NCBI GenBank assembly: GCA_964452565.1 | Contig: CAYVLY010000001.1 | Span: forward strand, 515,053 to 579,052 | DNA: 64,000 nucleotides | DNA from: an uncultured Gammaproteobacteria bacterium | GTDB taxonomy: Bacteria; Patescibacteriota; Patescibacteriia; UBA9934 | Direction of reading: 5' to 3' | Part shown: positions 3,160 to 49,856 of the stretch, one piece after another | Position numbering within the stretch: position 1 is the first letter of the stretch | Layout of the letters: every line of letters starts with the position of its first letter | Notes under the pieces: generated by a model | Database searches by the model: none | The model's input: only the letters and a program-made list of their open reading frames with translations | What the model was told of the DNA's origin: nothing | Position numbers and translations under genes: made by a program

Positions 3160-3276
3160 CGCTCTTTCACCCTTCTTCCCTGCGATCCACAAGGCTCGCA
3201 GGTCCGCCAAAGTTTAGTACTTGATACTAGCCTTTGGCGGGCAAAACACTAACGGCCATTGGCCAAAGGAGACGCA

Positions 3277-3537: not shown

Positions 3538-3618
3538 CAAATCTGCTCCTTCTCACGCCTGGCGCTCGGCCGGGCGTCCGCCAAAGTTTAGCACTCGATG
3601 CTGGCCTTTGGTGGACTT
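3538..3618 (+). repeat. Conserved leader repeat with hairpin (copy 2 of 3)
   Basis: Nearly identical to 3981-4060, with a partial copy at 3207-3262. The stem is CCGCCAAAG / CTTTGGTGG around an approximately 19-nt loop, directly upstream of a paralogous gene. Confidence 0.6.
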
Positions 3619-3641
3619 CAACCTTTTCCCTGGAGAGATCC

Positions 3642-3968
3642 ATGTCCAGCAAGCCCGATCACATCGTAAGCGCAATCCTCCTGATCATCGGCGCAACTAT
3701 CTACACCACAACGCTGTCAACGGCATATGTCGTGCTCATGACCTGGTATATCACGATCACGCCCCTCTTCGTCTTCGCAGCCGGCCTGTTCATGGGCTGC
3801 GTGATCCTGATCATGGCCATCAAAGACCAAGGCAACCTGAGATTCGCGATGGCTCTGCTTACAGCCCTGGGTGTGGCGTTCAACTTTCCGATGACCCTTG
3901 TAGCTCTCGGAACCCAGTTCGGAGAGGACGTGGTCCTCGCTTGTCTGGGGGCTGGCGGTCTGCTGTGA
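3642..3968 (+). CDS. Small membrane protein, paralog B
   Basis: 108 aa. It shares TLSTA..., ALGTQFGEDVVL motifs with 4094-4453. Multi-TM. Confidence 0.45.
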   Translation: MSSKPDHIVSAILLIIGATIYTTTLSTAYVVLMTWYITITPLFVFAAGLFMGCVILIMAIKDQGNLRFAMALLTALGVAFNFPMTLVALGTQFGEDVVLACLGAGGLL

Positions 3969-3980
3969 CCGCTGTGCCGA

Positions 3981-4060
3981 TCCACCTCCTTCTCACGCCT
4001 GGCATTCGGCCGGGCGTCCGCCAAAGTTTAGAACTTGATTCTGGCCTTTGGTGGACGTGA
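3981..4060 (+). repeat. Conserved leader repeat with hairpin (copy 3 of 3)
   Basis: Same sequence family as 3538-3618. Confidence 0.6.
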
Positions 4061-6634: not shown

Positions 6635-6843
6635 CGAGCACGTCCAGGTCTATCCTCGGGCAGGAAGACGGAATAGCATTTTGATGTCCAATTTCTCCTT
6701 AGATATAAATTGGATCTCCAAAATGCCCGTCTGTATGCCTGAGGTATACCTGGACAGCGCAGCACTGTGGCTAGCAGTTTCTTTTCCCCATTTCTTTGCT
6801 GCTTCAAAGAAATGGGGCCAGGGGTTGGGGGCAGGATGCCCCC
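6635..6843. repeat. Dispersed non-coding repeat, copy B
   Basis: Second copy of the repeat at 1768-1976, again immediately upstream of a promoter and a GC-rich island. Confidence 0.7.
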
Positions 6844-6855
6844 ACTACTAAGTTA

Positions 6856-9619: not shown

Positions 9620-9694
9620 GGCCCCATCGTCTAGTGGTTAGGACATCAGGTTTTCATCCTGGAAACGGGGGTTCGATTCCCCCTGGGGTCACCA
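9620..9694 (+). tRNA. tRNA-Glu (anticodon TTC)
   Basis: Cloverleaf: acceptor GGCCCCA/TGGGGTC, anticodon loop TTTTCAT, T-loop TTCGATT, encoded CCA. The 3' end forms attL of the integrated element. Confidence 0.85.
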
Positions 9695-11201
9695 AAGAGG
9701 ACTCATCCATGTGATGTGTCTTTTTTGTTTGTAAGATTGGCGACAAAGCAGGTGTTTCAAATCCTGAATAGGTGTACACGGGTTTTTCTGGGAAAATCAA
9801 ACTCTGCAACTGCTGTTTTTGCGTGAAGTCGGCGTCAACCCATGTCTTTGGGAGTGTTCCAACGAATCCAAAAACGTAATCAACCGCCTCGTCGATATTG
9901 AATGTTTCCAGCCGCACTTTTGCGAGCTTGGTGTGCTGGTCTGCAATGCGATCTTTTACCTCGGCAAACTCCTCCTTGAAATCATCATCCTCGATCAGTT
10001 CTTTTTTCTTCATTCCAATGAGTGCTTTCTTTTCTTCCTCTATACGATCGAGCTCAACGGTCAGACGTTTACGTTCCTGATTGATTGTTTCGTACTGGTC
10101 GTCCCATACGTCCAAAATAACAGCCTTGAACGCCTTGAGAAACTTTTGTTTGGGAGTGATTTGTTCAAGGTAGTTGAAAAACTCTTGCTCGAGAGTATCT
10201 TTTGGAATTGATTTTACTTTTGTTGGGCACTCTTTGAAGTAACAGCGGTAGTACGGATACTTGTCGCCAGACTTGTTCGTTGAGAACGAAGCGGTCATTG
10301 GACGACCACAAAATCCACAAATCACTTGATGGCGCAGCGGAAACGCATCGTTGCCACGCTTTTTGGCGATCGCATCCTCCTTGCTTGAACCTCTGAGAAG
10401 CGTTTGACACATATTGAATGTTTCCATGCTGACAAGCGGTTCATGCAGTCCTTTGTACTCTTTCCCCTTTGAAACCATGCGCCCTGTGTAAAATACGTTT
10501 CTAACGATCTTTGAAATAAGTTGCGGGGAAATCTTGTTTCCTTGCTCAGTACGCAATCCACGATCATTGACGGCAACTCGCACCTCCTCCAGCGTGTAGA
10601 TGCCTTTTGCAAACTCACCAAAGATCCAGCCCATATGCTCGGCTTTTTCACTGTCAGCTGTGACGATCTTTTCTCCTGCCTTGGTTTTGATGTTTCTGTA
10701 ACCGATGGGAGCTTTCCATTGCCAATATCCTTTTTCGAGTTTAGTCAGCATGCAATCACGGGTGCGCTCTCCACGAATCTGGTTATCAAATTGAGCATTG
10801 GCCGCCATTACGTTACCGATGAACTGACCCGCTGGCGTTTCATCAATGGCTTCTGTTACCGATATGAGCCTGATATTGAGTTTGCTCAGGAGTACCAAGA
10901 TCGTACTATAATCGTTCACGTTTCGTGTCAGACGGTCGACTTTGTAGACAATAATGAAGTCGATGGTTTTGTAGTTCTTCTTGCAGTATTCAAGCATAGC
11001 TTGAAGTCCATCTCGATTTGCCGTCTTAGCCGATACGCCATCATCATGAAACACCTTATCGACGTTACCTTGGATTTCTTTCGCCTTCCTGTGGCACGCA
11101 TTATCCTGCTGCTCCAAGCTGATACCCAAAGCAGCCTGTTCCTCTGTCGAAACACGGTAATAGATGAGGCCATTGAGTTGTAGATCTTGAGTTTCGTTCA
11201 T
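9654..11201 (-). CDS. Large serine recombinase (copy 1; C-terminus altered by integration)
   Basis: 515 aa. It has an N-terminal resolvase-type catalytic domain (YYRVSTEEQ), a recombinase domain and a Cys zinc ribbon (CGFCGRPM...YYRCYFKECP). Its 3' end crosses the att core (LVT) and terminates inside the tRNA sequence. Confidence 0.8.
   Translation of the reverse strand: MNETQDLQLNGLIYYRVSTEEQAALGISLEQQDNACHRKAKEIQGNVDKVFHDDGVSAKTANRDGLQAMLEYCKKNYKTIDFIIVYKVDRLTRNVNDYSTILVLLSKLNIRLISVTEAIDETPAGQFIGNVMAANAQFDNQIRGERTRDCMLTKLEKGYWQWKAPIGYRNIKTKAGEKIVTADSEKAEHMGWIFGEFAKGIYTLEEVRVAVNDRGLRTEQGNKISPQLISKIVRNVFYTGRMVSKGKEYKGLHEPLVSMETFNMCQTLLRGSSKEDAIAKKRGNDAFPLRHQVICGFCGRPMTASFSTNKSGDKYPYYRCYFKECPTKVKSIPKDTLEQEFFNYLEQITPKQKFLKAFKAVILDVWDDQYETINQERKRLTVELDRIEEEKKALIGMKKKELIEDDDFKEEFAEVKDRIADQHTKLAKVRLETFNIDEAVDYVFGFVGTLPKTWVDADFTQKQQLQSLIFPEKPVYTYSGFETPALSPILQTKKTHHMDESSLVTPGGIEPPFPG
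9687..9696 (+). other. att core copy 1 (attL: tRNA-Glu 3' end / element left end)
   Basis: GGTCACCAAA. The left flank is tRNA and the right flank is the element. Confidence 0.7.
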
Positions 11202-11515
11202 ATACCAAAAGGAGTGACTCTCCGTTTGAGCTCAACCACCAAACGATGGAAGAAACGGCAGTCACCCCTTTTCATATCACAACGATTGCATTGTGTTGTG
11301 TACGCTTGGAACGTTGAGCTCATACGCATTATGTCATGTTTACAGTTGATTTTCAACGGGTGTTTTTACTCCCATTCGTTCTTTTTTCCATTTCTCAAAG
11401 GCGAGGTTTGCAAATTGATATTGAGCATCTCGAAGCTGACGAATCTCATCATCGCTCATACCTTTTGCGTCTTCGCCAAGCAAACGCTTGTACTTCGAGA
11501 GCGCAATCATAAATC

Positions 11516-12682
11516 TTACGCATCATTTCCTGATGCGACCTTACGTAGCATTGCTTGTAGCTCATCCTCGCTGATGTTGTATCGCACCTCCCCAGACCCC
11601 CTCTGTACAGCCTCAATCTCACGCATCAACTCGATCTGTCGACTTTCGTCGATATGCCCGTAGCCGTAGGAGCCGAATGTAGTTGCTACATTTTCGTGAC
11701 CAAGGTTCTGGCTTATGGCTTTTTTCTGCTCCTCGGTCAGCGGCTTTTTCATGAACTCCTTGACCAAAAGATGACGCAAGGAGTGAGGATGGTAGTACGG
11801 CTCACCTGCTGCCTTGAAGCGTTTTTCAAAAATCTTTCGAGCAGGGCTTGCGCTCGACCAGTAGACAGGCTCAACTTCCCCCGTGCTGTAATAACTGATG
11901 TTTTCTTTTCCGTTTTCCACCTTGGTGGCAGGAAACAATGGGTCATTCTCCTTGAATCCACGTTCATCTTTGAGATATTCAAACCATGACAAGAAGTATG
12001 TTTGTGCTTCTTTGTATTCAAGTGGGAATAAAGCCGTTGCAATCCGCTTTGAGAACTTGGTTTTGACACCAAGGTTTGGGTCTTGGTCAACCACCATGTC
12101 AACGGGGTCAAACGAGCCCAGAGGCAAGCTCACGATTGCTGAAATGCGTGCCCCTGTCAGCAGGGTAAAGCTCAAGAGAGCCTTGTCACGCATGTCGATT
12201 TCGTTTTTTGGTTCAATCGCTTCAATGACCTTTTTTACCTGTTCCATTGTGGGAATCTTGCGTCGTTTGCTTTGAAGCGCTTGACGAGACTCCTTTTTGC
12301 CAAGTGATAAGTACCCAATATCTGTTTCTTGGATGGCCTGCCGATACCCCTCCTGCCTTGAGAGCCAGTCGAAGAAACCACGTAACTTGCGTAGAGTGTG
12401 GTACTGGTAGCTGATACTTACATTTCCACCTCGCTTGCTTTGGCGAGTGGCGAGCCACGTCTTGAACTCAACAGCACGTTTCTTGTTGAACAGATGAAAA
12501 TCCGCTTCATCCGTAAAGTCCTGCCATTGTAGAATGGCTCCTTCATACGTCGTGATGGAGCTCTGCGAAAAGCCCTTGGACTGCTTGAGGTAGTCGAAAT
12601 ACTTTCGCTTCATCAGCTCGTTTTCATAACGCACTTCTTCCTTCGTTTTTGTGGGTTTTGTGTTGTTTGTAGATTGGGACAT
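11516..12682 (-). CDS. Tyrosine recombinase/integrase family protein (copy 1)
   Basis: 388 aa with phage-integrase-like motifs (TGARISA, HPHSLRHLL, LGHENVATTFGSYGY). Confidence 0.7.
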   Translation of the reverse strand: MSQSTNNTKPTKTKEEVRYENELMKRKYFDYLKQSKGFSQSSITTYEGAILQWQDFTDEADFHLFNKKRAVEFKTWLATRQSKRGGNVSISYQYHTLRKLRGFFDWLSRQEGYRQAIQETDIGYLSLGKKESRQALQSKRRKIPTMEQVKKVIEAIEPKNEIDMRDKALLSFTLLTGARISAIVSLPLGSFDPVDMVVDQDPNLGVKTKFSKRIATALFPLEYKEAQTYFLSWFEYLKDERGFKENDPLFPATKVENGKENISYYSTGEVEPVYWSSASPARKIFEKRFKAAGEPYYHPHSLRHLLVKEFMKKPLTEEQKKAISQNLGHENVATTFGSYGYGHIDESRQIELMREIEAVQRGSGEVRYNISEDELQAMLRKVASGNDA

Positions 12683-12687
12683 ATAGC

Positions 12688-13164
12688 TTATGTGTGAGAG
12701 AATCCGTTAGTCCTTTCGGGAGAGGTTTTGAGTAGGCGAGATATTTTGCTGCCGCACGCCTCACACAGACCCGTTCTGCGATACTGTTCGAGGTTGTTTT
12801 TCCCTATCCGCTTGCCCGTTTTTTCTATTCGTTCGGTACCTTCTTTTGGCCTGACACCTTGGCCGCAGGAAAAGCAGAGGAGTTCATCTGGCTTGAGCTT
12901 CTGCTTCCTGTCGTTTCGTCGAGCTTTGAGAAAGTCGTAAAGCACCTGTCCATCAAAGAGCAGAGGCTTCTTGTTGGACATCATGGGTGCAAGCCCTTGC
13001 TTCATCCATCGCTGTACAGTTTTTCGACCAATACCCAACTCGGCGACAATCTCATTGATGTCGTAGCTATGGCGTTTTTTGATCTTGTTGAGCTGGTACC
13101 GCTTCATGACTTTGAAAGTTCTGGAGAGGCTTTCCCATCTCCGTACCTTTATGCAGCCGTTCAA
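12688..13164 (-). CDS. HTH plus zinc-ribbon DNA-binding protein (copy 1)
   Basis: 158 aa with an HTH (INEIVAELGIGRKTVQRWMKQGL) and a CxxC...CxxC motif (CFSCGQG...CEACGSK). Confidence 0.5.
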   Translation of the reverse strand: MNGCIKVRRWESLSRTFKVMKRYQLNKIKKRHSYDINEIVAELGIGRKTVQRWMKQGLAPMMSNKKPLLFDGQVLYDFLKARRNDRKQKLKPDELLCFSCGQGVRPKEGTERIEKTGKRIGKNNLEQYRRTGLCEACGSKISRLLKTSPERTNGFSHT

Positions 13165-13264
13165 GTGGAGTCGCTGTCAAATCTTTGGGGGTGTGAACAA
13201 AACAAACAAAAAATCCCCATGTTTTACGGGGTTTTTGTGTTTGGGTTATCGACGCTTTACCTTT

Positions 13265-13296
13265 GTTCAAGTATCGACTTGAACGACCACTTGAAC
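13265..13296. promoter_or_regulatory. Operator-like palindrome GTTCAAGT-n4-ACTTGAAC plus a third half-site (copy 1)
   Basis: Perfect 8-bp inverted repeat with an additional ACTTGAAC 4 bp downstream. It lies in the 140-bp gap upstream of the HTH/integrase operon. Confidence 0.4.
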
Positions 13297-13303
13297 GAGT
13301 GTT

Positions 13304-14278
13304 CTATGTACAGCAATCGAGACGGGGGTTGAGTCGATAGCGACTACGACCCTTCTTATCAAAAACCGTCTTTGTGCCGTACTCCAATGCTACGTCGTTT
13401 ATCTGTTTTTTGTATGTTGAAATCGTGCGCTTGTTACCGCTTGCAAACTTATCTGCCAAAACACTCAACTCGACCGATGGGTCATCCTTGGTTCGTGCGT
13501 TGAAAAGATACTCAATCATGTAAACGGTCGGCTGATACAGCGATAGTCTCCCTGCAAAGCGTCCTCGCCCAACCTGCTTGAATAGCAGTTCTTTGTCCTT
13601 TCTCGCCAGAACGATGTCTTTGTCCAGCACAATGGAATCTTCGCCATCAATGGCGTAATCCTGCTGGAAATATGTTGCCTCTGCGACAGCATCAATCTCT
13701 ATACCATTTTCATCAATGTCTGCGATAAGTTCCAGTACGGGAACGGCATGGATATGAAGCGAAGCTGCCTTGTTGTTTGGATCGGCAAGAAATAGCAGGG
13801 TTGGACTACTGCGTGCGATGATGCTTGCCAGATATTCTTCACGCAAGTCATTGAGGTTGGCCACAAAAAAGATGGCTCGTGCGGCACCTGTTATTTCCAT
13901 GGCACCCACATTCCAAAACAAACCACTTTGCTTGAGGTGCGCCTCGGTGAGCTCAACGCCCTCTGCGTCAAGAAACAAGGCAAGAAACCGCCGAACATTC
14001 AAACTGTATGCGTGGCGATCTTCTGGCTTGAGGTACTGTCGATCCGTATCTTTCGAGCAGGCTACAAACAGGCGTTCCTCATCTTGTTGTACTGGAAGCA
14101 GGTGCCCGTCATAGCACGACGTGCATAAAGCCTCACTCCTTCGTGCGGTAGTTTGAATCAAGCCGAGTTTGGTCAAAAACTCCGTCACCTCATTTCCAAC
14201 AAGCTCAACCAATACAGAGCGATCCACTTGTGTGCTGGCACCGAAAAGCTGTAGCCCCTGTCGTAGATCGTTTCTCAT
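13304..14278 (-). CDS. Hypothetical protein, element cargo (324 aa, copy 1)
   Basis: Its start overlaps the stop of the upstream 389-aa gene by 4 bp (ATGA). No recognisable motif. Confidence 0.55.
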   Translation of the reverse strand: MRNDLRQGLQLFGASTQVDRSVLVELVGNEVTEFLTKLGLIQTTARRSEALCTSCYDGHLLPVQQDEERLFVACSKDTDRQYLKPEDRHAYSLNVRRFLALFLDAEGVELTEAHLKQSGLFWNVGAMEITGAARAIFFVANLNDLREEYLASIIARSSPTLLFLADPNNKAASLHIHAVPVLELIADIDENGIEIDAVAEATYFQQDYAIDGEDSIVLDKDIVLARKDKELLFKQVGRGRFAGRLSLYQPTVYMIEYLFNARTKDDPSVELSVLADKFASGNKRTISTYKKQINDVALEYGTKTVFDKKGRSRYRLNPRLDCCT

Positions 14279-15444
14279 ACCTCATTCACGGTATCAATAC
14301 CCCACTTGATGAGGAGCTTCCGCACCAACATGTCTTGCTCTCGGCTTTTGAGATTATGCCCTTTGCCATGCGTTACATCGAAGGTCACAGGGCGCCTTTT
14401 TCCGTTGATTTTGAAAACGACTTTGATTTTGGCTTGAAGAATATCAAAGAAATCAAAGTTGATATTGCGATACTGGAGCATTTCTTTCATGCTTTCAACG
14501 CCACCTTTTGCATCTGATCCAATGGTCAAGTACACCTTGCTCCCATTCGGACGAAATCGCAGGCTCATTGCCTTGAGTTGAACTGATTCGACGTTTTCTT
14601 CCTCCGCTATGGTCAGCGGATCAGGGTCGAGTGATTTGAGTACGTCGAGCCTATATGAGCTTGTTTTACAGTCTTCATAACGCAGACTCCACACATCTTC
14701 AATAACGGCACGTTGCAACCCCTCAACCTTTGTTTGTCCGCCCTTGACTTTCACTTCGAGTTTATTTCCGTTCAGCCAGTATTGAATATACGCTCGTAGA
14801 ATAGGACGTCTTGGCGTATCAGGTTTGAGCTTATCATCTGTCTCAAACTTCAAGTCGTTTACAAAGCGGTCTTCTACATAGGCGACCATGCACAAGCGGT
14901 CAGGTTTTTCGATGAGCTTGATTTTGCACCGTGTCTTTCGTCGACCAAATGTGAACATGTTCTGAATAGACTGTTCAAGTGTCGTGACGCCGTTGGTCAA
15001 AGTCGCCACTTCAACATCTGGGATGACAACACTTTTCCAGCTGCAAATGTTATCGAGCGCATGTTCGTCAACCGAAGTATGGAAAATGTCCTCGTGATTG
15101 ATAAAGAACCACAAGGCTCGGGAGTGATGATTGGGGAGTTCGTCGTACACCTTCCAGTCCACGGACTTTTGCAAGCGTTCTGCGGTTTTTTGTAGATACG
15201 CTACGGAAGCCCAGCCAGACATGTCGCTGATGTCATTGAGTGCCGTGAGAACCTCACCATGCTTTTGCTCATCCTGCGTATCGACTACCACCAAAAATCG
15301 GTCAGCACGAGCTTCATCTTCTTCATCGTCGTGTATAATAAAATCCAACTCCAACTTTTTGGCGAACTCACCAAGGAGTGCGGGGTCAAACTTCATCAAT
15401 AACGATGATGGATCAAAACTTCCTGTACCAGCCATATGTTGCAA
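14275..15444 (-). CDS. Hypothetical protein, element cargo (389 aa, copy 1)
   Basis: First gene of the minus-strand cargo operon. No recognisable motif. Confidence 0.55.
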   Translation of the reverse strand: MQHMAGTGSFDPSSLLMKFDPALLGEFAKKLELDFIIHDDEEDEARADRFLVVVDTQDEQKHGEVLTALNDISDMSGWASVAYLQKTAERLQKSVDWKVYDELPNHHSRALWFFINHEDIFHTSVDEHALDNICSWKSVVIPDVEVATLTNGVTTLEQSIQNMFTFGRRKTRCKIKLIEKPDRLCMVAYVEDRFVNDLKFETDDKLKPDTPRRPILRAYIQYWLNGNKLEVKVKGGQTKVEGLQRAVIEDVWSLRYEDCKTSSYRLDVLKSLDPDPLTIAEEENVESVQLKAMSLRFRPNGSKVYLTIGSDAKGGVESMKEMLQYRNINFDFFDILQAKIKVVFKINGKRRPVTFDVTHGKGHNLKSREQDMLVRKLLIKWGIDTVNEV

Positions 15445-15475
15445 AGATTTGTCAACTTATGGTAACTTACCAAAT

Positions 15476-15676
15476 ATGCAAGATCGGTCAACTCCACGAG
15501 AGACAAAAAAGCTCCCAGAGTTGTTGACTCTCAAAGAGGCGGCTGATTTGTTGCATTGTCACCCGAATACGTTGCGTAACTGGGACAACAAGGGCATCCT
15601 TGTTGCCGTGCGTCTGGGGTCACTGGGTGATCGCAGGTACAAAAAGCAAGACATATTGAAACTGATGGAGAAATAA
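15476..15676 (+). CDS. Xis/AlpA-like HTH DNA-binding protein (putative excisionase/regulator, copy 1)
   Basis: 66 aa (MQDRSTPRETKKLPELLTLKEAADLLHCHPNTLRNWDNKGIL...) with a MerR/excisionase-type HTH. Only the C-terminal part of track ORF 15131-15676 is counted, because the rest overlaps the 389-aa gene on the opposite strand. Confidence 0.6.
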   Translation: MQDRSTPRETKKLPELLTLKEAADLLHCHPNTLRNWDNKGILVAVRLGSLGDRRYKKQDILKLMEK

Positions 15677-15686
15677 AAGATGAGGT

Positions 15687-16460
15687 ATGCAGGTCGAACA
15701 AAGTAAGAATCTTGATCAGCAATTTTGTGAACATGGAAACTTCCTATTTTCATGTCCAGAATGTAAAGAAAGAGGTAGGGATATAATTTTGAGAATAGCT
15801 GACAGGAGATCGGTGCCTGATACTGAACAGGTTGAAAAAGTCAGGAATCACATTGAGAAGGTGGTACTGGGCGCTCTTTCAATGTTTGTTTCAAGGTTCG
15901 AGACTTATTGCAGAAAAGGAAACGAACTCGAGATTGTCATAGTTGATGCGACCGATCAAGATTTTGGTTCTGGAGAAGTGAAAGGTACTACTATTGACAT
16001 CCCGTTGTTAGAAGAGGAAAGGATGAGCTTCATTTTGCAAAGAATGGTTGAGAAATCTGATGACATTACGAAAAAACAACTCGAAAACATTGGTATTGCT
16101 ATCACTTGTTCGACGATATTACACGAAGCAATACATAGTTTTTTGGAGTCAAAGCCACACTCGAGTCTTCATGAAAAGATAGAAGCAATGAGTAGTATTC
16201 CTGATCCAGAAGGGATATTTTCCACACTATGCGATGAAGCCATTGCATATTCCATGCAATCCATTTTTTCAGAAACTATAGAGCCCTTTGGAAATACTGC
16301 TCCAAGAGTTGACCAAGATAAGGAAGCTAGTCTGGTCGCTGTAAGAAAAAAACTAGGTATGGCCATCGAAAAAGATATGCGAAAGGTGTTATATGGAAGG
16401 CTGGACACAGAATCATTCTTTGATATTCTTATACAAAAAGCAAAAACACTAACTCAATAA
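15687..16460 (+). CDS. HExxH-motif protein (putative metallopeptidase, ImmA/IrrE-like?) (copy 1)
   Basis: 257 aa with an N-terminal CxxC...CPEC and an internal ILHEAIH (HExxH). Family assignment is uncertain. Confidence 0.4.
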   Translation: MQVEQSKNLDQQFCEHGNFLFSCPECKERGRDIILRIADRRSVPDTEQVEKVRNHIEKVVLGALSMFVSRFETYCRKGNELEIVIVDATDQDFGSGEVKGTTIDIPLLEEERMSFILQRMVEKSDDITKKQLENIGIAITCSTILHEAIHSFLESKPHSSLHEKIEAMSSIPDPEGIFSTLCDEAIAYSMQSIFSETIEPFGNTAPRVDQDKEASLVAVRKKLGMAIEKDMRKVLYGRLDTESFFDILIQKAKTLTQ

Positions 16461-16471
16461 CAACAATATCT

Positions 16472-16960
16472 ATGTCAGAGACACGACGTGGACAAGAGCA
16501 TTCCCCCGATTCAGCAAACGAAATAGTCGAATTGCAACGAGAACAGATGAAACAAAACTTTGATGAAATTGCAGTAAAAGCCTTGTTCCAGTTGAGGAGA
16601 AGTTTGTTAGGGAAAGATTATCGAAACTTGCCCAATTTGAGAGCGCTTCCTGAACCGTTTGAACCAAACGCAGATATATCACATGATACACTCATGAAAA
16701 TATCATCTGATTTTATTACAGAAATGAGGTTGCAAATATCAGCTATCATTGCGGAGGCAACGAGAAGATTATCTTTGTATGATCAAAAGAAACAAGAGTA
16801 TCCAATTGATGCAAACATGGCACTTGAGGAGGTCTTGATTGAAAAAGCTTTTGATTTCTTGCGAGACCAAAAAAGAATAATCAGCAACAACCGCGGTACA
16901 CTTGGTGGATGGATGAAGACAATAGTAGAAAGAGAGAAAAATATAGTTGAGCATGACTAG
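16472..16960 (+). CDS. Hypothetical protein (162 aa, copy 1)
   Basis: ORF at the right end of the element. No motifs. Confidence 0.45.
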   Translation: MSETRRGQEHSPDSANEIVELQREQMKQNFDEIAVKALFQLRRSLLGKDYRNLPNLRALPEPFEPNADISHDTLMKISSDFITEMRLQISAIIAEATRRLSLYDQKKQEYPIDANMALEEVLIEKAFDFLRDQKRIISNNRGTLGGWMKTIVEREKNIVEHD

Positions 16961-18579
16961 TCGAGAGAAAAGGGTTGCATTTTTTGAGATCCAAAAATAT
17001 GCGGCAATGTCTCCGACCATTGCTTGATTTGCTGGATCAGGGTGTTCCAATGCTCAATACAGTAGGTCACCAAAGAGGACTCATCCATGTGATGTGTCTT
17101 TTTTGTTTGTAAGATTGGCGACAAAGCAGGTGTTTCAAATCCTGAATAGGTGTACACGGGTTTTTCTGGGAAAATCAAACTCTGCAACTGCTGTTTTTGC
17201 GTGAAGTCGGCGTCAACCCATGTCTTTGGGAGTGTTCCAACGAATCCAAAAACGTAATCAACCGCCTCGTCGATATTGAATGTTTCCAGCCGCACTTTTG
17301 CGAGCTTGGTGTGCTGGTCTGCAATGCGATCTTTTACCTCGGCAAACTCCTCCTTGAAATCATCATCCTCGATCAGTTCTTTTTTCTTCATTCCAATGAG
17401 TGCTTTCTTTTCTTCCTCTATACGATCGAGCTCAACGGTCAGACGTTTACGTTCCTGATTGATTGTTTCGTACTGGTCGTCCCATACGTCCAAAATAACA
17501 GCCTTGAACGCCTTGAGAAACTTTTGTTTGGGAGTGATTTGTTCAAGGTAGTTGAAAAACTCTTGCTCGAGAGTATCTTTTGGAATTGATTTTACTTTTG
17601 TTGGGCACTCTTTGAAGTAACAGCGGTAGTACGGATACTTGTCGCCAGACTTGTTCGTTGAGAACGAAGCGGTCATTGGACGACCACAAAATCCACAAAT
17701 CACTTGATGGCGCAGCGGAAACGCATCGTTGCCACGCTTTTTGGCGATCGCATCCTCCTTGCTTGAACCTCTGAGAAGCGTTTGACACATATTGAATGTT
17801 TCCATGCTGACAAGCGGTTCATGCAGTCCTTTGTACTCTTTCCCCTTTGAAACCATGCGCCCTGTGTAAAATACGTTTCTAACGATCTTTGAAATAAGTT
17901 GCGGGGAAATCTTGTTTCCTTGCTCAGTACGCAATCCACGATCATTGACGGCAACTCGCACCTCCTCCAGCGTGTAGATGCCTTTTGCAAACTCACCAAA
18001 GATCCAGCCCATATGCTCGGCTTTTTCACTGTCAGCTGTGACGATCTTTTCTCCTGCCTTGGTTTTGATGTTTCTGTAACCGATGGGAGCTTTCCATTGC
18101 CAATATCCTTTTTCGAGTTTAGTCAGCATGCAATCACGGGTGCGCTCTCCACGAATCTGGTTATCAAATTGAGCATTGGCCGCCATTACGTTACCGATGA
18201 ACTGACCCGCTGGCGTTTCATCAATGGCTTCTGTTACCGATATGAGCCTGATATTGAGTTTGCTCAGGAGTACCAAGATCGTACTATAATCGTTCACGTT
18301 TCGTGTCAGACGGTCGACTTTGTAGACAATAATGAAGTCGATGGTTTTGTAGTTCTTCTTGCAGTATTCAAGCATAGCTTGAAGTCCATCTCGATTTGCC
18401 GTCTTAGCCGATACGCCATCATCATGAAACACCTTATCGACGTTACCTTGGATTTCTTTCGCCTTCCTGTGGCACGCATTATCCTGCTGCTCCAAGCTGA
18501 TACCCAAAGCAGCCTGTTCCTCTGTCGAAACACGGTAATAGATGAGGCCATTGAGTTGTAGATCTTGAGTTTCGTTCAT
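16957..18579 (-). CDS. Large serine recombinase (copy 2; full-length attP-type form, 540 aa)
   Basis: Identical to copy 1 down to the att core. It then continues 37 codons into the right end of the preceding element copy (…LVTYCIEHWNTLIQQIKQWSETLPHIFGSQKMQPFSLD). Confidence 0.8.
   Translation of the reverse strand: MNETQDLQLNGLIYYRVSTEEQAALGISLEQQDNACHRKAKEIQGNVDKVFHDDGVSAKTANRDGLQAMLEYCKKNYKTIDFIIVYKVDRLTRNVNDYSTILVLLSKLNIRLISVTEAIDETPAGQFIGNVMAANAQFDNQIRGERTRDCMLTKLEKGYWQWKAPIGYRNIKTKAGEKIVTADSEKAEHMGWIFGEFAKGIYTLEEVRVAVNDRGLRTEQGNKISPQLISKIVRNVFYTGRMVSKGKEYKGLHEPLVSMETFNMCQTLLRGSSKEDAIAKKRGNDAFPLRHQVICGFCGRPMTASFSTNKSGDKYPYYRCYFKECPTKVKSIPKDTLEQEFFNYLEQITPKQKFLKAFKAVILDVWDDQYETINQERKRLTVELDRIEEEKKALIGMKKKELIEDDDFKEEFAEVKDRIADQHTKLAKVRLETFNIDEAVDYVFGFVGTLPKTWVDADFTQKQQLQSLIFPEKPVYTYSGFETPALSPILQTKKTHHMDESSLVTYCIEHWNTLIQQIKQWSETLPHIFGSQKMQPFSLD
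17065..17074 (+). other. att core copy 2 (element-element junction, attP-like)
   Basis: GGTCACCAAA flanked by the element right end (CAATACAGTAGG) and the element left end (GAGGACTCATCC). Confidence 0.7.
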
Positions 18580-18893
18580 ATACCAAAAGGAGTGACTCTC
18601 CGTTTGAGCTCAACCACCAAACGATGGAAGAAACGGCAGTCACCCCTTTTCATATCACAACGATTGCATTGTGTTGTGTACGCTTGGAACGTTGAGCTCA
18701 TACGCATTATGTCATGTTTACAGTTGATTTTCAACGGGTGTTTTTACTCCCATTCGTTCTTTTTTCCATTTCTCAAAGGCGAGGTTTGCAAATTGATATT
18801 GAGCATCTCGAAGCTGACGAATCTCATCATCGCTCATACCTTTTGCGTCTTCGCCAAGCAAACGCTTGTACTTCGAGAGCGCAATCATAAATC

Positions 18894-20060
18894 TTACGCA
18901 TCATTTCCTGATGCGACCTTACGTAGCATTGCTTGTAGCTCATCCTCGCTGATGTTGTATCGCACCTCCCCAGACCCCCTCTGTACAGCCTCAATCTCAC
19001 GCATCAACTCGATCTGTCGACTTTCGTCGATATGCCCGTAGCCGTAGGAGCCGAATGTAGTTGCTACATTTTCGTGACCAAGGTTCTGGCTTATGGCTTT
19101 TTTCTGCTCCTCGGTCAGCGGCTTTTTCATGAACTCCTTGACCAAAAGATGACGCAAGGAGTGAGGATGGTAGTACGGCTCACCTGCTGCCTTGAAGCGT
19201 TTTTCAAAAATCTTTCGAGCAGGGCTTGCGCTCGACCAGTAGACAGGCTCAACTTCCCCCGTGCTGTAATAACTGATGTTTTCTTTTCCGTTTTCCACCT
19301 TGGTGGCAGGAAACAATGGGTCATTCTCCTTGAATCCACGTTCATCTTTGAGATATTCAAACCATGACAAGAAGTATGTTTGTGCTTCTTTGTATTCAAG
19401 TGGGAATAAAGCCGTTGCAATCCGCTTTGAGAACTTGGTTTTGACACCAAGGTTTGGGTCTTGGTCAACCACCATGTCAACGGGGTCAAACGAGCCCAGA
19501 GGCAAGCTCACGATTGCTGAAATGCGTGCCCCTGTCAGCAGGGTAAAGCTCAAGAGAGCCTTGTCACGCATGTCGATTTCGTTTTTTGGTTCAATCGCTT
19601 CAATGACCTTTTTTACCTGTTCCATTGTGGGAATCTTGCGTCGTTTGCTTTGAAGCGCTTGACGAGACTCCTTTTTGCCAAGTGATAAGTACCCAATATC
19701 TGTTTCTTGGATGGCCTGCCGATACCCCTCCTGCCTTGAGAGCCAGTCGAAGAAACCACGTAACTTGCGTAGAGTGTGGTACTGGTAGCTGATACTTACA
19801 TTTCCACCTCGCTTGCTTTGGCGAGTGGCGAGCCACGTCTTGAACTCAACAGCACGTTTCTTGTTGAACAGATGAAAATCCGCTTCATCCGTAAAGTCCT
19901 GCCATTGTAGAATGGCTCCTTCATACGTCGTGATGGAGCTCTGCGAAAAGCCCTTGGACTGCTTGAGGTAGTCGAAATACTTTCGCTTCATCAGCTCGTT
20001 TTCATAACGCACTTCTTCCTTCGTTTTTGTGGGTTTTGTGTTGTTTGTAGATTGGGACAT
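18894..20060 (-). CDS. Tyrosine recombinase/integrase family protein (copy 2)
   Basis: Identical duplicate of 11516-12682. Confidence 0.7.
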   Translation of the reverse strand: MSQSTNNTKPTKTKEEVRYENELMKRKYFDYLKQSKGFSQSSITTYEGAILQWQDFTDEADFHLFNKKRAVEFKTWLATRQSKRGGNVSISYQYHTLRKLRGFFDWLSRQEGYRQAIQETDIGYLSLGKKESRQALQSKRRKIPTMEQVKKVIEAIEPKNEIDMRDKALLSFTLLTGARISAIVSLPLGSFDPVDMVVDQDPNLGVKTKFSKRIATALFPLEYKEAQTYFLSWFEYLKDERGFKENDPLFPATKVENGKENISYYSTGEVEPVYWSSASPARKIFEKRFKAAGEPYYHPHSLRHLLVKEFMKKPLTEEQKKAISQNLGHENVATTFGSYGYGHIDESRQIELMREIEAVQRGSGEVRYNISEDELQAMLRKVASGNDA

Positions 20061-20065
20061 ATAGC

Positions 20066-20542
20066 TTATGTGTGAGAGAATCCGTTAGTCCTTTCGGGAG
20101 AGGTTTTGAGTAGGCGAGATATTTTGCTGCCGCACGCCTCACACAGACCCGTTCTGCGATACTGTTCGAGGTTGTTTTTCCCTATCCGCTTGCCCGTTTT
20201 TTCTATTCGTTCGGTACCTTCTTTTGGCCTGACACCTTGGCCGCAGGAAAAGCAGAGGAGTTCATCTGGCTTGAGCTTCTGCTTCCTGTCGTTTCGTCGA
20301 GCTTTGAGAAAGTCGTAAAGCACCTGTCCATCAAAGAGCAGAGGCTTCTTGTTGGACATCATGGGTGCAAGCCCTTGCTTCATCCATCGCTGTACAGTTT
20401 TTCGACCAATACCCAACTCGGCGACAATCTCATTGATGTCGTAGCTATGGCGTTTTTTGATCTTGTTGAGCTGGTACCGCTTCATGACTTTGAAAGTTCT
20501 GGAGAGGCTTTCCCATCTCCGTACCTTTATGCAGCCGTTCAA
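20066..20542 (-). CDS. HTH plus zinc-ribbon DNA-binding protein (copy 2)
   Basis: Identical duplicate of 12688-13164. Confidence 0.5.
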   Translation of the reverse strand: MNGCIKVRRWESLSRTFKVMKRYQLNKIKKRHSYDINEIVAELGIGRKTVQRWMKQGLAPMMSNKKPLLFDGQVLYDFLKARRNDRKQKLKPDELLCFSCGQGVRPKEGTERIEKTGKRIGKNNLEQYRRTGLCEACGSKISRLLKTSPERTNGFSHT

Positions 20543-20681
20543 GTGGAGTCGCTGTCAAATCTTTGGGGGTGTGAACAAAACAAACAAAAAATCCCCATGT
20601 TTTACGGGGTTTTTGTGTTTGGGTTATCGACGCTTTACCTTTGTTCAAGTATCGACTTGAACGACCACTTGAACGAGTGTT

Positions 20682-21656
20682 CTATGTACAGCAATCGAGA
20701 CGGGGGTTGAGTCGATAGCGACTACGACCCTTCTTATCAAAAACCGTCTTTGTGCCGTACTCCAATGCTACGTCGTTTATCTGTTTTTTGTATGTTGAAA
20801 TCGTGCGCTTGTTACCGCTTGCAAACTTATCTGCCAAAACACTCAACTCGACCGATGGGTCATCCTTGGTTCGTGCGTTGAAAAGATACTCAATCATGTA
20901 AACGGTCGGCTGATACAGCGATAGTCTCCCTGCAAAGCGTCCTCGCCCAACCTGCTTGAATAGCAGTTCTTTGTCCTTTCTCGCCAGAACGATGTCTTTG
21001 TCCAGCACAATGGAATCTTCGCCATCAATGGCGTAATCCTGCTGGAAATATGTTGCCTCTGCGACAGCATCAATCTCTATACCATTTTCATCAATGTCTG
21101 CGATAAGTTCCAGTACGGGAACGGCATGGATATGAAGCGAAGCTGCCTTGTTGTTTGGATCGGCAAGAAATAGCAGGGTTGGACTACTGCGTGCGATGAT
21201 GCTTGCCAGATATTCTTCACGCAAGTCATTGAGGTTGGCCACAAAAAAGATGGCTCGTGCGGCACCTGTTATTTCCATGGCACCCACATTCCAAAACAAA
21301 CCACTTTGCTTGAGGTGCGCCTCGGTGAGCTCAACGCCCTCTGCGTCAAGAAACAAGGCAAGAAACCGCCGAACATTCAAACTGTATGCGTGGCGATCTT
21401 CTGGCTTGAGGTACTGTCGATCCGTATCTTTCGAGCAGGCTACAAACAGGCGTTCCTCATCTTGTTGTACTGGAAGCAGGTGCCCGTCATAGCACGACGT
21501 GCATAAAGCCTCACTCCTTCGTGCGGTAGTTTGAATCAAGCCGAGTTTGGTCAAAAACTCCGTCACCTCATTTCCAACAAGCTCAACCAATACAGAGCGA
21601 TCCACTTGTGTGCTGGCACCGAAAAGCTGTAGCCCCTGTCGTAGATCGTTTCTCAT
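20682..21656 (-). CDS. Hypothetical cargo protein (324 aa, copy 2)
   Basis: Identical duplicate of 13304-14278. Confidence 0.55.
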   Translation of the reverse strand: MRNDLRQGLQLFGASTQVDRSVLVELVGNEVTEFLTKLGLIQTTARRSEALCTSCYDGHLLPVQQDEERLFVACSKDTDRQYLKPEDRHAYSLNVRRFLALFLDAEGVELTEAHLKQSGLFWNVGAMEITGAARAIFFVANLNDLREEYLASIIARSSPTLLFLADPNNKAASLHIHAVPVLELIADIDENGIEIDAVAEATYFQQDYAIDGEDSIVLDKDIVLARKDKELLFKQVGRGRFAGRLSLYQPTVYMIEYLFNARTKDDPSVELSVLADKFASGNKRTISTYKKQINDVALEYGTKTVFDKKGRSRYRLNPRLDCCT

Positions 21657-22822
21657 ACCTCATTCACGGTATCAATACCCCACTTGATGAGGAGCTTCCG
21701 CACCAACATGTCTTGCTCTCGGCTTTTGAGATTATGCCCTTTGCCATGCGTTACATCGAAGGTCACAGGGCGCCTTTTTCCGTTGATTTTGAAAACGACT
21801 TTGATTTTGGCTTGAAGAATATCAAAGAAATCAAAGTTGATATTGCGATACTGGAGCATTTCTTTCATGCTTTCAACGCCACCTTTTGCATCTGATCCAA
21901 TGGTCAAGTACACCTTGCTCCCATTCGGACGAAATCGCAGGCTCATTGCCTTGAGTTGAACTGATTCGACGTTTTCTTCCTCCGCTATGGTCAGCGGATC
22001 AGGGTCGAGTGATTTGAGTACGTCGAGCCTATATGAGCTTGTTTTACAGTCTTCATAACGCAGACTCCACACATCTTCAATAACGGCACGTTGCAACCCC
22101 TCAACCTTTGTTTGTCCGCCCTTGACTTTCACTTCGAGTTTATTTCCGTTCAGCCAGTATTGAATATACGCTCGTAGAATAGGACGTCTTGGCGTATCAG
22201 GTTTGAGCTTATCATCTGTCTCAAACTTCAAGTCGTTTACAAAGCGGTCTTCTACATAGGCGACCATGCACAAGCGGTCAGGTTTTTCGATGAGCTTGAT
22301 TTTGCACCGTGTCTTTCGTCGACCAAATGTGAACATGTTCTGAATAGACTGTTCAAGTGTCGTGACGCCGTTGGTCAAAGTCGCCACTTCAACATCTGGG
22401 ATGACAACACTTTTCCAGCTGCAAATGTTATCGAGCGCATGTTCGTCAACCGAAGTATGGAAAATGTCCTCGTGATTGATAAAGAACCACAAGGCTCGGG
22501 AGTGATGATTGGGGAGTTCGTCGTACACCTTCCAGTCCACGGACTTTTGCAAGCGTTCTGCGGTTTTTTGTAGATACGCTACGGAAGCCCAGCCAGACAT
22601 GTCGCTGATGTCATTGAGTGCCGTGAGAACCTCACCATGCTTTTGCTCATCCTGCGTATCGACTACCACCAAAAATCGGTCAGCACGAGCTTCATCTTCT
22701 TCATCGTCGTGTATAATAAAATCCAACTCCAACTTTTTGGCGAACTCACCAAGGAGTGCGGGGTCAAACTTCATCAATAACGATGATGGATCAAAACTTC
22801 CTGTACCAGCCATATGTTGCAA
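21653..22822 (-). CDS. Hypothetical cargo protein (389 aa, copy 2)
   Basis: Identical duplicate of 14275-15444. Confidence 0.55.
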   Translation of the reverse strand: MQHMAGTGSFDPSSLLMKFDPALLGEFAKKLELDFIIHDDEEDEARADRFLVVVDTQDEQKHGEVLTALNDISDMSGWASVAYLQKTAERLQKSVDWKVYDELPNHHSRALWFFINHEDIFHTSVDEHALDNICSWKSVVIPDVEVATLTNGVTTLEQSIQNMFTFGRRKTRCKIKLIEKPDRLCMVAYVEDRFVNDLKFETDDKLKPDTPRRPILRAYIQYWLNGNKLEVKVKGGQTKVEGLQRAVIEDVWSLRYEDCKTSSYRLDVLKSLDPDPLTIAEEENVESVQLKAMSLRFRPNGSKVYLTIGSDAKGGVESMKEMLQYRNINFDFFDILQAKIKVVFKINGKRRPVTFDVTHGKGHNLKSREQDMLVRKLLIKWGIDTVNEV

Positions 22823-22853
22823 AGATTTGTCAACTTATGGTAACTTACCAAAT

Positions 22854-23054
22854 ATGCAAGATCGGTCAACTCCACGAGAGACAAAAAAGCTCCCAGAGTT
22901 GTTGACTCTCAAAGAGGCGGCTGATTTGTTGCATTGTCACCCGAATACGTTGCGTAACTGGGACAACAAGGGCATCCTTGTTGCCGTGCGTCTGGGGTCA
23001 CTGGGTGATCGCAGGTACAAAAAGCAAGACATATTGAAACTGATGGAGAAATAA
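22854..23054 (+). CDS. Xis/AlpA-like HTH protein (copy 2)
   Basis: Identical duplicate of 15476-15676. Confidence 0.6.
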   Translation: MQDRSTPRETKKLPELLTLKEAADLLHCHPNTLRNWDNKGILVAVRLGSLGDRRYKKQDILKLMEK

Positions 23055-23064
23055 AAGATGAGGT

Positions 23065-23838
23065 ATGCAGGTCGAACAAAGTAAGAATCTTGATCAGCAA
23101 TTTTGTGAACATGGAAACTTCCTATTTTCATGTCCAGAATGTAAAGAAAGAGGTAGGGATATAATTTTGAGAATAGCTGACAGGAGATCGGTGCCTGATA
23201 CTGAACAGGTTGAAAAAGTCAGGAATCACATTGAGAAGGTGGTACTGGGCGCTCTTTCAATGTTTGTTTCAAGGTTCGAGACTTATTGCAGAAAAGGAAA
23301 CGAACTCGAGATTGTCATAGTTGATGCGACCGATCAAGATTTTGGTTCTGGAGAAGTGAAAGGTACTACTATTGACATCCCGTTGTTAGAAGAGGAAAGG
23401 ATGAGCTTCATTTTGCAAAGAATGGTTGAGAAATCTGATGACATTACGAAAAAACAACTCGAAAACATTGGTATTGCTATCACTTGTTCGACGATATTAC
23501 ACGAAGCAATACATAGTTTTTTGGAGTCAAAGCCACACTCGAGTCTTCATGAAAAGATAGAAGCAATGAGTAGTATTCCTGATCCAGAAGGGATATTTTC
23601 CACACTATGCGATGAAGCCATTGCATATTCCATGCAATCCATTTTTTCAGAAACTATAGAGCCCTTTGGAAATACTGCTCCAAGAGTTGACCAAGATAAG
23701 GAAGCTAGTCTGGTCGCTGTAAGAAAAAAACTAGGTATGGCCATCGAAAAAGATATGCGAAAGGTGTTATATGGAAGGCTGGACACAGAATCATTCTTTG
23801 ATATTCTTATACAAAAAGCAAAAACACTAACTCAATAA
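23065..23838 (+). CDS. HExxH-motif protein (copy 2)
   Basis: Identical duplicate of 15687-16460. Confidence 0.4.
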   Translation: MQVEQSKNLDQQFCEHGNFLFSCPECKERGRDIILRIADRRSVPDTEQVEKVRNHIEKVVLGALSMFVSRFETYCRKGNELEIVIVDATDQDFGSGEVKGTTIDIPLLEEERMSFILQRMVEKSDDITKKQLENIGIAITCSTILHEAIHSFLESKPHSSLHEKIEAMSSIPDPEGIFSTLCDEAIAYSMQSIFSETIEPFGNTAPRVDQDKEASLVAVRKKLGMAIEKDMRKVLYGRLDTESFFDILIQKAKTLTQ

Positions 23839-23849
23839 CAACAATATCT

Positions 23850-24338
23850 ATGTCAGAGACACGACGTGGACAAGAGCATTCCCCCGATTCAGCAAACGAA
23901 ATAGTCGAATTGCAACGAGAACAGATGAAACAAAACTTTGATGAAATTGCAGTAAAAGCCTTGTTCCAGTTGAGGAGAAGTTTGTTAGGGAAAGATTATC
24001 GAAACTTGCCCAATTTGAGAGCGCTTCCTGAACCGTTTGAACCAAACGCAGATATATCACATGATACACTCATGAAAATATCATCTGATTTTATTACAGA
24101 AATGAGGTTGCAAATATCAGCTATCATTGCGGAGGCAACGAGAAGATTATCTTTGTATGATCAAAAGAAACAAGAGTATCCAATTGATGCAAACATGGCA
24201 CTTGAGGAGGTCTTGATTGAAAAAGCTTTTGATTTCTTGCGAGACCAAAAAAGAATAATCAGCAACAACCGCGGTACACTTGGTGGATGGATGAAGACAA
24301 TAGTAGAAAGAGAGAAAAATATAGTTGAGCATGACTAG
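23850..24338 (+). CDS. Hypothetical protein (162 aa, copy 2)
   Basis: Identical duplicate of 16472-16960. Confidence 0.45.
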   Translation: MSETRRGQEHSPDSANEIVELQREQMKQNFDEIAVKALFQLRRSLLGKDYRNLPNLRALPEPFEPNADISHDTLMKISSDFITEMRLQISAIIAEATRRLSLYDQKKQEYPIDANMALEEVLIEKAFDFLRDQKRIISNNRGTLGGWMKTIVEREKNIVEHD

Positions 24339-24443
24339 TCGAGAGAAAAGGGTTGCATTTTTTGAGATCCAAAAATATGCGGCAATGTCTCCGACCATTG
24401 CTTGATTTGCTGGATCAGGGTGTTCCAATGCTCAATACAGTAG

Positions 24444-24453
24444 GTCACCAAAA
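24444..24453 (+). other. att core copy 3 (attR: element right end / chromosome)
   Basis: GGTCACCAAA followed by the chromosomal hairpin AGAACACGC-tccc-GCGTGTTCTTTT. Confidence 0.7.
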
Positions 24454-24482
24454 GAACACGCTCCCGCGTGTTCTTTTGATTT
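24454..24482 (+). terminator. Displaced tRNA-Glu terminator hairpin
   Basis: AGAACACGC-tccc-GCGTGTTCT followed by TTTTGATTTTG, immediately after the attR core. Confidence 0.5.

Positions 24483-48363: not shown

Positions 48364-49856
<1,493 letters not shown>

Follow-up and report, generated by a model that had tools for sequence, protein, structure and literature searches.

Can the integration of a mobile element rewrite the very enzyme that integrates it? This question is raised by a 64,000-nt stretch of DNA (hereafter the window; positions 515,053 to 579,052, forward strand, of contig CAYVLY010000001.1) from an uncultured bacterium that GTDB places in Patescibacteriota. The window contains a 7.4-kb integrative element inserted into the 3' end of a tRNA-Glu(UUC) gene. 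This element encodes a large serine recombinase (LSR), and the element's attachment (att) site, attP, falls within the LSR gene itself, with 35 codons left before the stop. DNA topology gives the LSR gene two alleles: the circle and the tandem junction yield a protein of 540 aa, and the position beside the tRNA gene yields one of 515 aa. A reading of the DNA letters alone (hereafter the sequence-only reading) had proposed such an exchange of the LSR C-terminus. We followed it up by sequence comparison, homologue searches and structure prediction.

Comparison of the window with itself at an offset of 7,378 bp showed that 9687..17074 equals 17065..24452 with 0 mismatches, revealing a perfect tandem repeat. 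The region consists of two head-to-tail copies of 7,378 bp and one additional copy of the 10-bp core, GGTCACCAAA. The first core sits within the 3' end of the tRNA gene, which was called by ARAGORN and by the Rfam tRNA model. The sequence downstream of the third core, AGAACACGCTCCCGCGTGTTCTTTT, may be read as the original tRNA-Glu trailer, and it now lies 14.8 kb away from the tRNA-Glu gene. Flanks with a T-run and a hairpin were seen likewise at attR of other loci when the att sites were compared. The lack of any difference between the two copies could reflect a true tandem of very recent origin, such as an integrated dimer that arose by rolling-circle replication or homologous recombination, or it could reflect an assembler passing twice round a cycle formed by co-existing circular and integrated forms. 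Under either origin, the attP junction sequence must be present in the sample.

The two LSR products are identical through T505 (...DESSLVT) and then end in PGGIEPPFPG and in YCIEHWNTLIQQIKQWSETLPHIFGSQKMQPFSLD, respectively, each followed by a stop codon. The open reading frames (ORFs) and their translations bore out that the minus-strand LSR frame crosses the core, which encodes (S)-L-V-T. They also agreed with the proposal that the copy next to the tRNA gene ends after 11 tRNA-derived codons, i.e., 10 residues plus the stop. PGGIEPPFPG results from translating the acceptor stem and T arm of tRNA-Glu in antisense, and the TGA stop is the complement of anticodon-loop nt 37-35. In the second copy the frame runs on into the opposite end of the element, as had been claimed, and gives 540 aa. 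The tail itself comprises 35 residues plus the stop, which makes 36 codons and not the 37 first counted. The segment encoding it is joined to the LSR body solely in the context of attP or the tandem junction. The 540-aa form ends in an amphipathic helix, WNxLIxQIKxW, and the 515-aa form carries ten Pro/Gly-rich residues instead.

The protein has the domain order of a typical LSR, with matches to Resolvase (PF00239, residues 13-159, E=4e-32), Recombinase (PF07508, residues 185-270) and Zn_ribbon_recom (PF13408, residues 289-345). Among 76 homologue sequences R16, S18, R63, R90, R93, C295, C298 and C325 were invariant and C320 was nearly so. Conservation also extends to the core, with T483 and S487 invariant and V504 nearly invariant. 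The AlphaFold2 (AF2) model, with a mean predicted local distance difference test (pLDDT) score of 88, contains long coiled-coil helices at residues 352-399 and 405-428, and its best Foldseek matches were the integrases of SPbeta, Bxb1, phiC31 and A118 (E 2e-20 to 1e-9). The LSR catalytic domain, the recombinase domain with a four-Cys zinc-ribbon domain after it, and the coiled coil within an overall LSR fold were all found. In the model the core codons fall within a helix spanning residues 502-509, the tail forms a second helix at residues 511-529 (pLDDT 76-83), and residues 532-540 are disordered. The sequence-only reading had allowed that a stop or a domain boundary upstream of the core might reduce the tail to read-through; neither was found, and both the conservation and the predicted helix reach the core. 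The 515-aa form retains the catalytic, recombinase and zinc-ribbon/coiled-coil domains according to Pfam and AF2.

We then considered how widely this layout occurs. A protein search at E <= 1e-20 returned 690 homologues, and those bearing a source name were from Patescibacteria. Among the best 120 homologues, 103 had tRNA-antisense tails, which look like ...LVxPRGIEPLLPG, as encoded by the antisense of the tRNA T arm; 6 had a helix tail like that of copy 2, and 11 were truncated or otherwise different. A tRNA gene on the opposite strand overlapped the LSR 3' end at 58 of the 80 related genome loci and at 26 of the 36 metagenome loci. Because the layout recurs at this frequency, chance read-through is not an adequate account of it. 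The proposal that integration exchanges the LSR C-terminus at an att core within the gene is supported. The tRNA types at the 58 genome loci were Glu (29), His (9), Ala (8), Arg (4), Lys (3), Asn (2) and Leu, Ser and Val (1 each), and genome and metagenome loci taken together included Glu, His, Ala, Lys, Arg, Asn, Leu, Ser, Val and Pro. The overlap was also present in relatives with 28-35% identity, and in metagenome-assembled genomes labelled Saccharibacteria, Elusimicrobia, Acidobacteriota and Verrucomicrobia. The same build is shared by roughly a hundred related elements, for the most part from Patescibacteria. The viral contigs of IMG/VR contained no close relatives, the best matches having 28-30% identity, so the elements are not typical prophages.

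The excised form was seen directly. A contig of 10,823 bp (L241:1-10823) has a 30-bp terminal overlap and is therefore circular; it encodes a full-length LSR (P0015), and no tRNA gene is present on it. An att site inside the element's own integrase gene, with attL and attR carrying a recombinant int 3' end, was thus found in the window, in its relatives and in a circular form. The circle also carries an N6_N4 methyltransferase, a ResIII helicase and a DUF5655 gene, which look like restriction or defence cargo. Tandem arrays of such elements occur in nature: on a 468-kb metagenome contig, two related elements of 5.2-5.4 kb with 84-90% identity lie in tandem beside tRNA-Arg (L167:3400-11500). 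The upstream LSR of this array (P0095) connects with the far end of the downstream element and carries the helix tail at full length. Integration by an LSR leaves no intact attB, which makes the formation of such an array puzzling. Two other loci (L005 and L031) were considered as full-length attP forms on the basis of a tblastn match to residue 529 and were discarded, since six-frame inspection showed ordinary tRNA-tailed ORFs with a spurious extension.

If the tail is detached by integration, its codons are expected at the far end of each integrated element, on the LSR strand and in frame with the core copy there. An exact-repeat search for the far ends (seed >=9 nt) found only the longer cores, those of L027, L040, L046 and L049. 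Since most cores are shorter than the 9-nt seed, the far ends were sought with a hidden Markov model (HMM) of the tail peptide combined with a check of frame and core. The HMM was built from 7 independent tails, taken from the window and from database proteins only. At a threshold of >=10 bits, it gave 15 matches on the LSR strand upstream of the LSR genes (603 kb) and 0 on the opposite strand. The downstream controls gave 1 forward match, which was the L043 gene's own intact tail, and 0 reverse matches. The upstream matches lay 3.5-11 kb from the LSR end, in frame, after a short match to the LSR/tRNA junction. About 25 integrated elements bear an orphan in-frame segment at their far end that encodes the same helix (WNxLIxEIKxW), for example FVTQVVRNWNRIIKEIAEWKHF (L030), LVDPMIENWNSLVQEIGRWKVV (L008) and LVHYCIENLNPIIYDIKKWFEY (L002). 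The long tail is therefore conserved in homologues, as the sequence-only reading had suggested checking: the helix motif recurs in independent full-length homologues, in the circular contig and in the orphan segments.

We examined on which level this conservation acts by comparing codon positions in 22 aligned tails. In columns 9, 10, 12 and 13, which are hydrophobic or charged helix positions, the entropy of the second codon position was 0.27, 0.44, 0.70 and 0.00 bits, and the first and third codon positions varied freely (1.5-1.9 bits). Over tail codons 8-20, the mean pairwise BLOSUM62 score in the LSR frame was +0.52 with 2 stops, versus -1.15 and -1.23 with 24 and 19 stops in the other two frames. 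Host flanks, used as a control, scored about -1.2 in all frames. Because the conservation is frame-specific, it acts on the protein, and it bears the signature of a translated helix under selection. Tail codons 5-7 (AAT TGG AAC) were conserved at all three codon positions. The tail DNA thus appears to do two jobs, the first part serving as the P' arm of attP and the second part being conserved only as protein.

The att sites were compared by aligning attL and attR for 24 loci and the window. The blocks of identity between attL and attR ranged from 4 to 15 nt, and three positions, T-G-A of TTGGTGACC, were common to all. These are the antisense of tRNA nt 73-71, and the crossover dinucleotide is narrowed to these 3 nt. 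Judged from these alignments, the strands are probably exchanged near tRNA nt 71-73, in the uppermost part of the acceptor stem, so that the tRNA would stay intact. The B' arm of attB contains TCGAAC, the antisense of the T loop, which we propose as a putative binding motif for the zinc-ribbon domain. In all loci compared, TGGAAC in the P' arm lay exactly 5 bp further out than TCGAAC in the B' arm. A cryo-EM preprint on phiC31 integrase places the zinc-ribbon domain at attP shifted 5 bp outward relative to attB (10.1101/2025.05.02.651858). Given this match in register, the W-N codons of the LSR gene appear to double as the P' arm, mimicking the T loop of the tRNA. An AGTTCC/AATTCC stretch in the P arm was considered as a mirrored motif and rejected, as it lies at the wrong distance from the crossover. 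The coordinates of the features are collected in Table 1.

Table 1. Features of the element, its att sites and its genes; positions refer to the window unless a locus is named
Feature	Position	Strand	Remarks and basis
tRNA-Glu(UUC), integration target	9620..9694	+	last 8 nt, GGTCACCA, in core; ARAGORN, Rfam, sequence
Core copy 1 (attL), GGTCACCAAA	9687..9696		period-7378 identity, sequence
Core copy 2, tandem junction, equivalent to attP	17065..17074		period-7378 identity, sequence
Core copy 3 (attR)	24443..24452		period-7378 identity, sequence
LSR gene, integrated (attL) form, 515 aa	9654..11201	-	tail PGGIEPPFPG; ORF, translation, Pfam
LSR gene, attP form, 540 aa	16957..18579	-	full length with C-terminal helix; ORF, translation, Pfam, AF2
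Tail-coding segment, 35 codons + stop, far element end	16957..17064	-	encodes conserved helix; sequence, tail HMM, AF2
Orphan tail-coding segment at attR	24335..24442	-	identical to 16957-17064, no LSR body attached; period identity
Putative B' arm motif TCGAAC (antisense T-loop)	9671..9676	-	11-16 nt beyond core edge; 24 loci + window
Putative P' arm motif TGGAAC (codons W510-N511)	17044..17049	-	16-21 nt beyond core edge; 24 loci + window
Second identical element copy (7,378 bp)	17075..24442	-	period-7378 identity
Probable former tRNA-Glu trailer, terminator-like hairpin AGAACACGCTCCCGCGTGTTCTTTT; B arm of attB	24453..24480	+	sequence
Tyrosine recombinase, 388 aa, accessory	11516..12682	-	Pfam PF00589
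HTH_17 (excisionase-type helix-turn-helix) protein, 158 aa	12688..13164	-	PF12728, phrog_66
Two ORFs, 324 aa and 389 aa, no assigned function	13304..15444	-	conserved with L001; Pfam/phrog searches, tblastn
Two ORFs, 257 aa and 162 aa, no family match	15687..16960	+	Pfam/phrog searches
~260-aa ORF upstream of LSR in seven related loci	L019:8560-9411, L027:8995-9792, L030:5008-5796, L037:9023-9790, L040:9023-9796, L168:632-1423, L172:5271-6068		

What could the exchange of C-termini do? We hold it to be moderately probable that the placement of attP inside the LSR's own gene, with isoforms set by topology that differ in activity, lets the state of the DNA feed back on the enzyme. We infer a difference in activity between the 540-aa and 515-aa forms, and through such a difference the DNA topology would act on the recombinase. 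The conservation of the lost part at the protein level lends this indirect support. The suggestion of the sequence-only reading that the swap may tell the integrative from the excisive state would be compatible with the data. The full-length 540-aa form would most likely be the efficient attP x attB integrase, and the 515-aa prophage form may be attenuated or altered in coiled-coil control. A 515-aa form of this kind would stabilise the integrated, lysogeny-like state or bias the reaction towards attL x attR excision. In phiC31 integrase, the extreme C-terminus lies at the surface of the zinc-ribbon domain to which the recombination directionality factor (RDF) binds (10.1101/2025.05.02.651858), and by analogy a regulatory role for the C-terminal element is plausible.

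Several observations weigh against this account. The 100%-identical tandem may be an assembly path through circular and integrated forms, and part of the tail conservation, that of AAT TGG AAC, appears to act on the DNA. No clear mirrored motif was seen in the P and B arms of the 24 loci and the window. In the closest genome and metagenome relatives (L001 and L161, respectively), which may be decayed or longer elements, the 10 kb upstream yielded no tail segment. Distant relatives (Mucilaginibacter; P0118) keep an intact helix and do not adjoin a tRNA gene, which implies that the helix predates the switch, and the helix may have a general structural role.

The relatives named here have features of their own. 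L161 looks decayed, with a truncated tyrosine recombinase gene and repeats after the LSR gene. There, the LSR, of 82% identity, is followed by three exact 129-bp repeats (L161:11505-11805, and 12093-12134), each starting with the antisense of a tRNA-Glu 3' half, and ARAGORN called no intact tRNA overlapping the LSR 3' end at this locus. The repeats may be the scar of repeated recombination or a decayed site. The distant relatives with an intact helix, e.g. ...KEYWEQVVDELKELK, and no adjacent tRNA gene have 28-34% identity; they include L055, L059, L061, L063, L068 (Mucilaginibacter) and L243:10001-11587. The LSR gene of L243 lies in an island with its own tyrosine integrase and a ParE toxin, adjoining a CRISPR-Cas locus.

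A bolder form of the proposal, which we consider unlikely, would make the detachable helix a built-in directionality determinant and have the clade read the conserved tRNA T-arm as its B' half-site. The full-length enzyme, made only from excised DNA, would then perform attP x attB recombination only, and the truncated enzyme, obtainable solely from integrated DNA and with relaxed coiled-coil autoinhibition, would carry out attL x attR recombination without a separate RDF. The DNA topology itself would tell the recombinase which reaction to run. Since the T-arm is universally conserved, its use as the B' half-site would explain the spread over at least ten tRNA types. If this were true, these integrases would have natural targets in every genome.

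Other explanations of the locus have to be set against the feedback proposal. The arrangement might be a neutral by-product, with the att site located by chance at the gene's 3' end, a structural or dispensable helix, isoforms that behave alike, and directionality governed by the HTH_17 protein or an RDF; this we find possible but doubtful. The truncated form does retain every canonical LSR domain, the tRNA-encoded tails vary with the target (10 aa at Glu, ~20 aa at Ala and Lys) and look accidental, and the attP DNA motif TGGAAC accounts for part of the tail conservation. The sequence-only reading had itself entertained that the att site simply lies within the int 3' end, and this is right in part, TGG AAC being constrained as DNA of the attP arm. 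It leaves aside that the helix beyond the expected attP footprint is conserved frame-specifically at the protein level, that this conservation persists in orphan segments translated only after excision, and that the att-in-gene position is kept down to ~30% LSR identity and across ten tRNA types. An SSV-like self-inactivation, in which the helix would be essential, the 515-aa form inactive, and excision dependent on full-length protein from a junction copy or circle, appears quite improbable. The loss amounts to only 35 of the 540 residues and leaves every catalytic and DNA-binding domain unsplit, and the intact ORFs that 103 of the best 120 homologues keep in the truncated state suggest maintenance. 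The conserved helix would fit self-inactivation, as would the tandems with a full-length copy in two independent genomes (the window and L167) and the precedent of SSV-type integrases (PMC7253208).

The tyrosine recombinase at 11516-12682 is another candidate for the tRNA-site integrase, in which case the LSR would do no more than resolve multimers or invert DNA and would overlap the core by coincidence. The classical enzymes of tRNA targeting are tyrosine integrases (PMC4383910), the 10-bp identity could act as an overlap region, and the excisionase-like HTH_17 gene adjoins the tyrosine recombinase gene. By tblastn, however, homologues of this enzyme were detected only in the four closest loci (L001, L164, L161 and L162), and those of the HTH_17 protein in two (L001 and L164). 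Among 78 ORFs from 18 other, delimited elements of the family, 1 encodes a tyrosine recombinase (Phage_integrase). The overlap of LSR gene and tRNA gene is family-wide, and the 5-bp offset of the P' and B' motifs is typical of LSRs. Since the tyrosine recombinase is rare, and since many loci have identity blocks of just 4-7 nt, less than its overlap region would need, the integrase that the family has in common is the LSR, and integration at the tRNA site by the tyrosine recombinase is very unlikely. The build also departs from that of a tyrosine-integrase tRNA island of the Islander type, which holds a displaced tRNA fragment of some size, 10 bp being duplicated in the window and 4-15 nt in relatives. 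We give equally little credence to an assembly artefact, by which the tandem and hence the 540-aa ORF would exist in no cell. The 0 mismatches over 7,378 bp would fit an assembler circling a graph cycle twice, but such a cycle itself needs reads that span the attP junction. Full-length forms were moreover obtained independently, from the circular contig, the diverged tandem and the in-frame attR orphan tails in about 25 loci.

The tyrosine recombinase/HTH_17 module (11516-13164) is repeated at 18894-20542 in the second copy of the element, and it could serve dimer resolution or a second att site. In the 78-ORF survey, 7 ORFs matched REP_ORF2-G2P and 4 matched RepSA, both rolling-circle initiators, and cargo of the restriction-modification, toxin-antitoxin and AAA_13 kinds was present. 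A conserved ORF of ~260 aa lies directly upstream of the LSR gene, on the same strand, in seven loci, and these seven ORFs are very likely the seven REP_ORF2-G2P matches. The window element has no detectable Rep or counterpart of the ~260-aa ORF. The related elements are small, integrative and plasmid-like.

Elsewhere in the window, three copies of a 71-nt repeat occur at 3172-4056, with spacings of 374 and 440 bp and a hairpin-like GTCCGCCAAAG...CTTTGGTGGAC in each. Two further pairs of repeats, at a distance of ~4.87 kb (1768-1981 and 6635-6847; 89-91% identity), point to the duplication of a segment. The ORF at 6955-8208 encodes acidic Glu-Pro repeats in a stretch of 66% G+C, against roughly 45% G+C in the window. 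A promoter-like TTGACA...TATATT with its leader is duplicated at 44927-45025 and 45872-45969, upstream of neighbouring ORFs of 262 and 253 aa. A complete 16S rRNA gene is present at 48363-49854, and no 23S rRNA gene was called in the window; tRNA-Ile (53132-53208) lies 3.3 kb from the 16S rRNA gene, on the opposite strand.

Genome engineering prizes serine integrases for their unidirectionality, and running them backwards normally takes a separate factor, which is difficult to find. A large natural clade whose enzyme has its C-terminus rewritten upon integration offers a direct test of whether a rearranged gene can encode directionality or activity. The clade also contradicts the textbook split by which tyrosine integrases go to tRNA genes and serine integrases to protein-coding genes, and in it one stretch of DNA would serve simultaneously as a T-loop-mimicking recombination arm and as coding sequence. 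The mobile elements of Patescibacteria are poorly known, and the elements described here form an unremarked class of small integrative plasmid-like elements in these bacteria, often with a rolling-circle Rep and restriction-modification or toxin-antitoxin cargo.

Among known systems, the canonical LSRs (phiC31, Bxb1, A118/LI and SPbeta) share with the present enzyme the domain order, the fold, short att sites and, as far as the P' and B' arms show, the 5-bp zinc-ribbon offset between attP and attB. To our knowledge, their int ORFs do not contain attP, and they insert into protein-coding genes or intergenic sites. They depend on a separate RDF. A database paper of 2015 stated that serine integrases were not known to target tRNA genes (PMC4383910), and a systematic LSR survey of 2022 does not mention tRNA. 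In the literature we found no description of tRNA-targeting LSRs or of the present clade. A large clade of tRNA-targeting LSRs, a conserved detachable helix, and tail codons that double as a T-loop-mimicking attP arm appear not to have been described before. Actinomycete integrative and conjugative elements of the pSAM2 type are likewise small integrative elements at tRNA 3' ends with a rolling-circle initiator, as in the related elements, but they use tyrosine integrases and have a conjugation function, and the window element is without a detectable Rep.

An att site inside the integrase gene is itself not new, having precedents in Mx8, in the SSV type and in the rumA integrative and conjugative elements (ICEs). 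In the 'suicidal' integrases of SSV type from archaeal viruses and plasmids, the site is likewise located in the integrase ORF, and the integrase gene is altered when a tRNA gene is entered (PMC7253208, PMC4383910). Those enzymes are tyrosine recombinases whose gene is split into two inactive parts, whereas here the functional domains stay together, and no such self-splitting was found in the 515-aa form. The IntP/IntX integrase of Mx8, also a tyrosine recombinase, resembles the present LSR in that attP lies inside int and integration gives the gene a new 3' end, so that the C-terminus becomes shorter and different; the prophage form is reportedly altered or of lower activity (PMC6070905, PMC4701971). 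In Mx8 ~112 residues are replaced by 13, whereas the present serine enzyme loses 35 residues, amounting to one helix outside the catalytic and DNA-binding domains. The single serine integrases of the streptococcal rumA ICEs (Ambroset et al. 2016) are alike in enzyme type and in having direct repeats in the target and int genes. In these ICEs, rumA and int trade their 3' parts upon integration, which changes the length and sequence of the C-terminus, and a functional difference has been proposed (PMC4701971). The rumA ICE paper describes neither a conserved detachable helix nor target mimicry by the attP arm. The rumA ICEs are large conjugative elements of Firmicutes, and their target is a protein-coding gene that is disrupted, whereas the target here is a tRNA gene that is kept intact.

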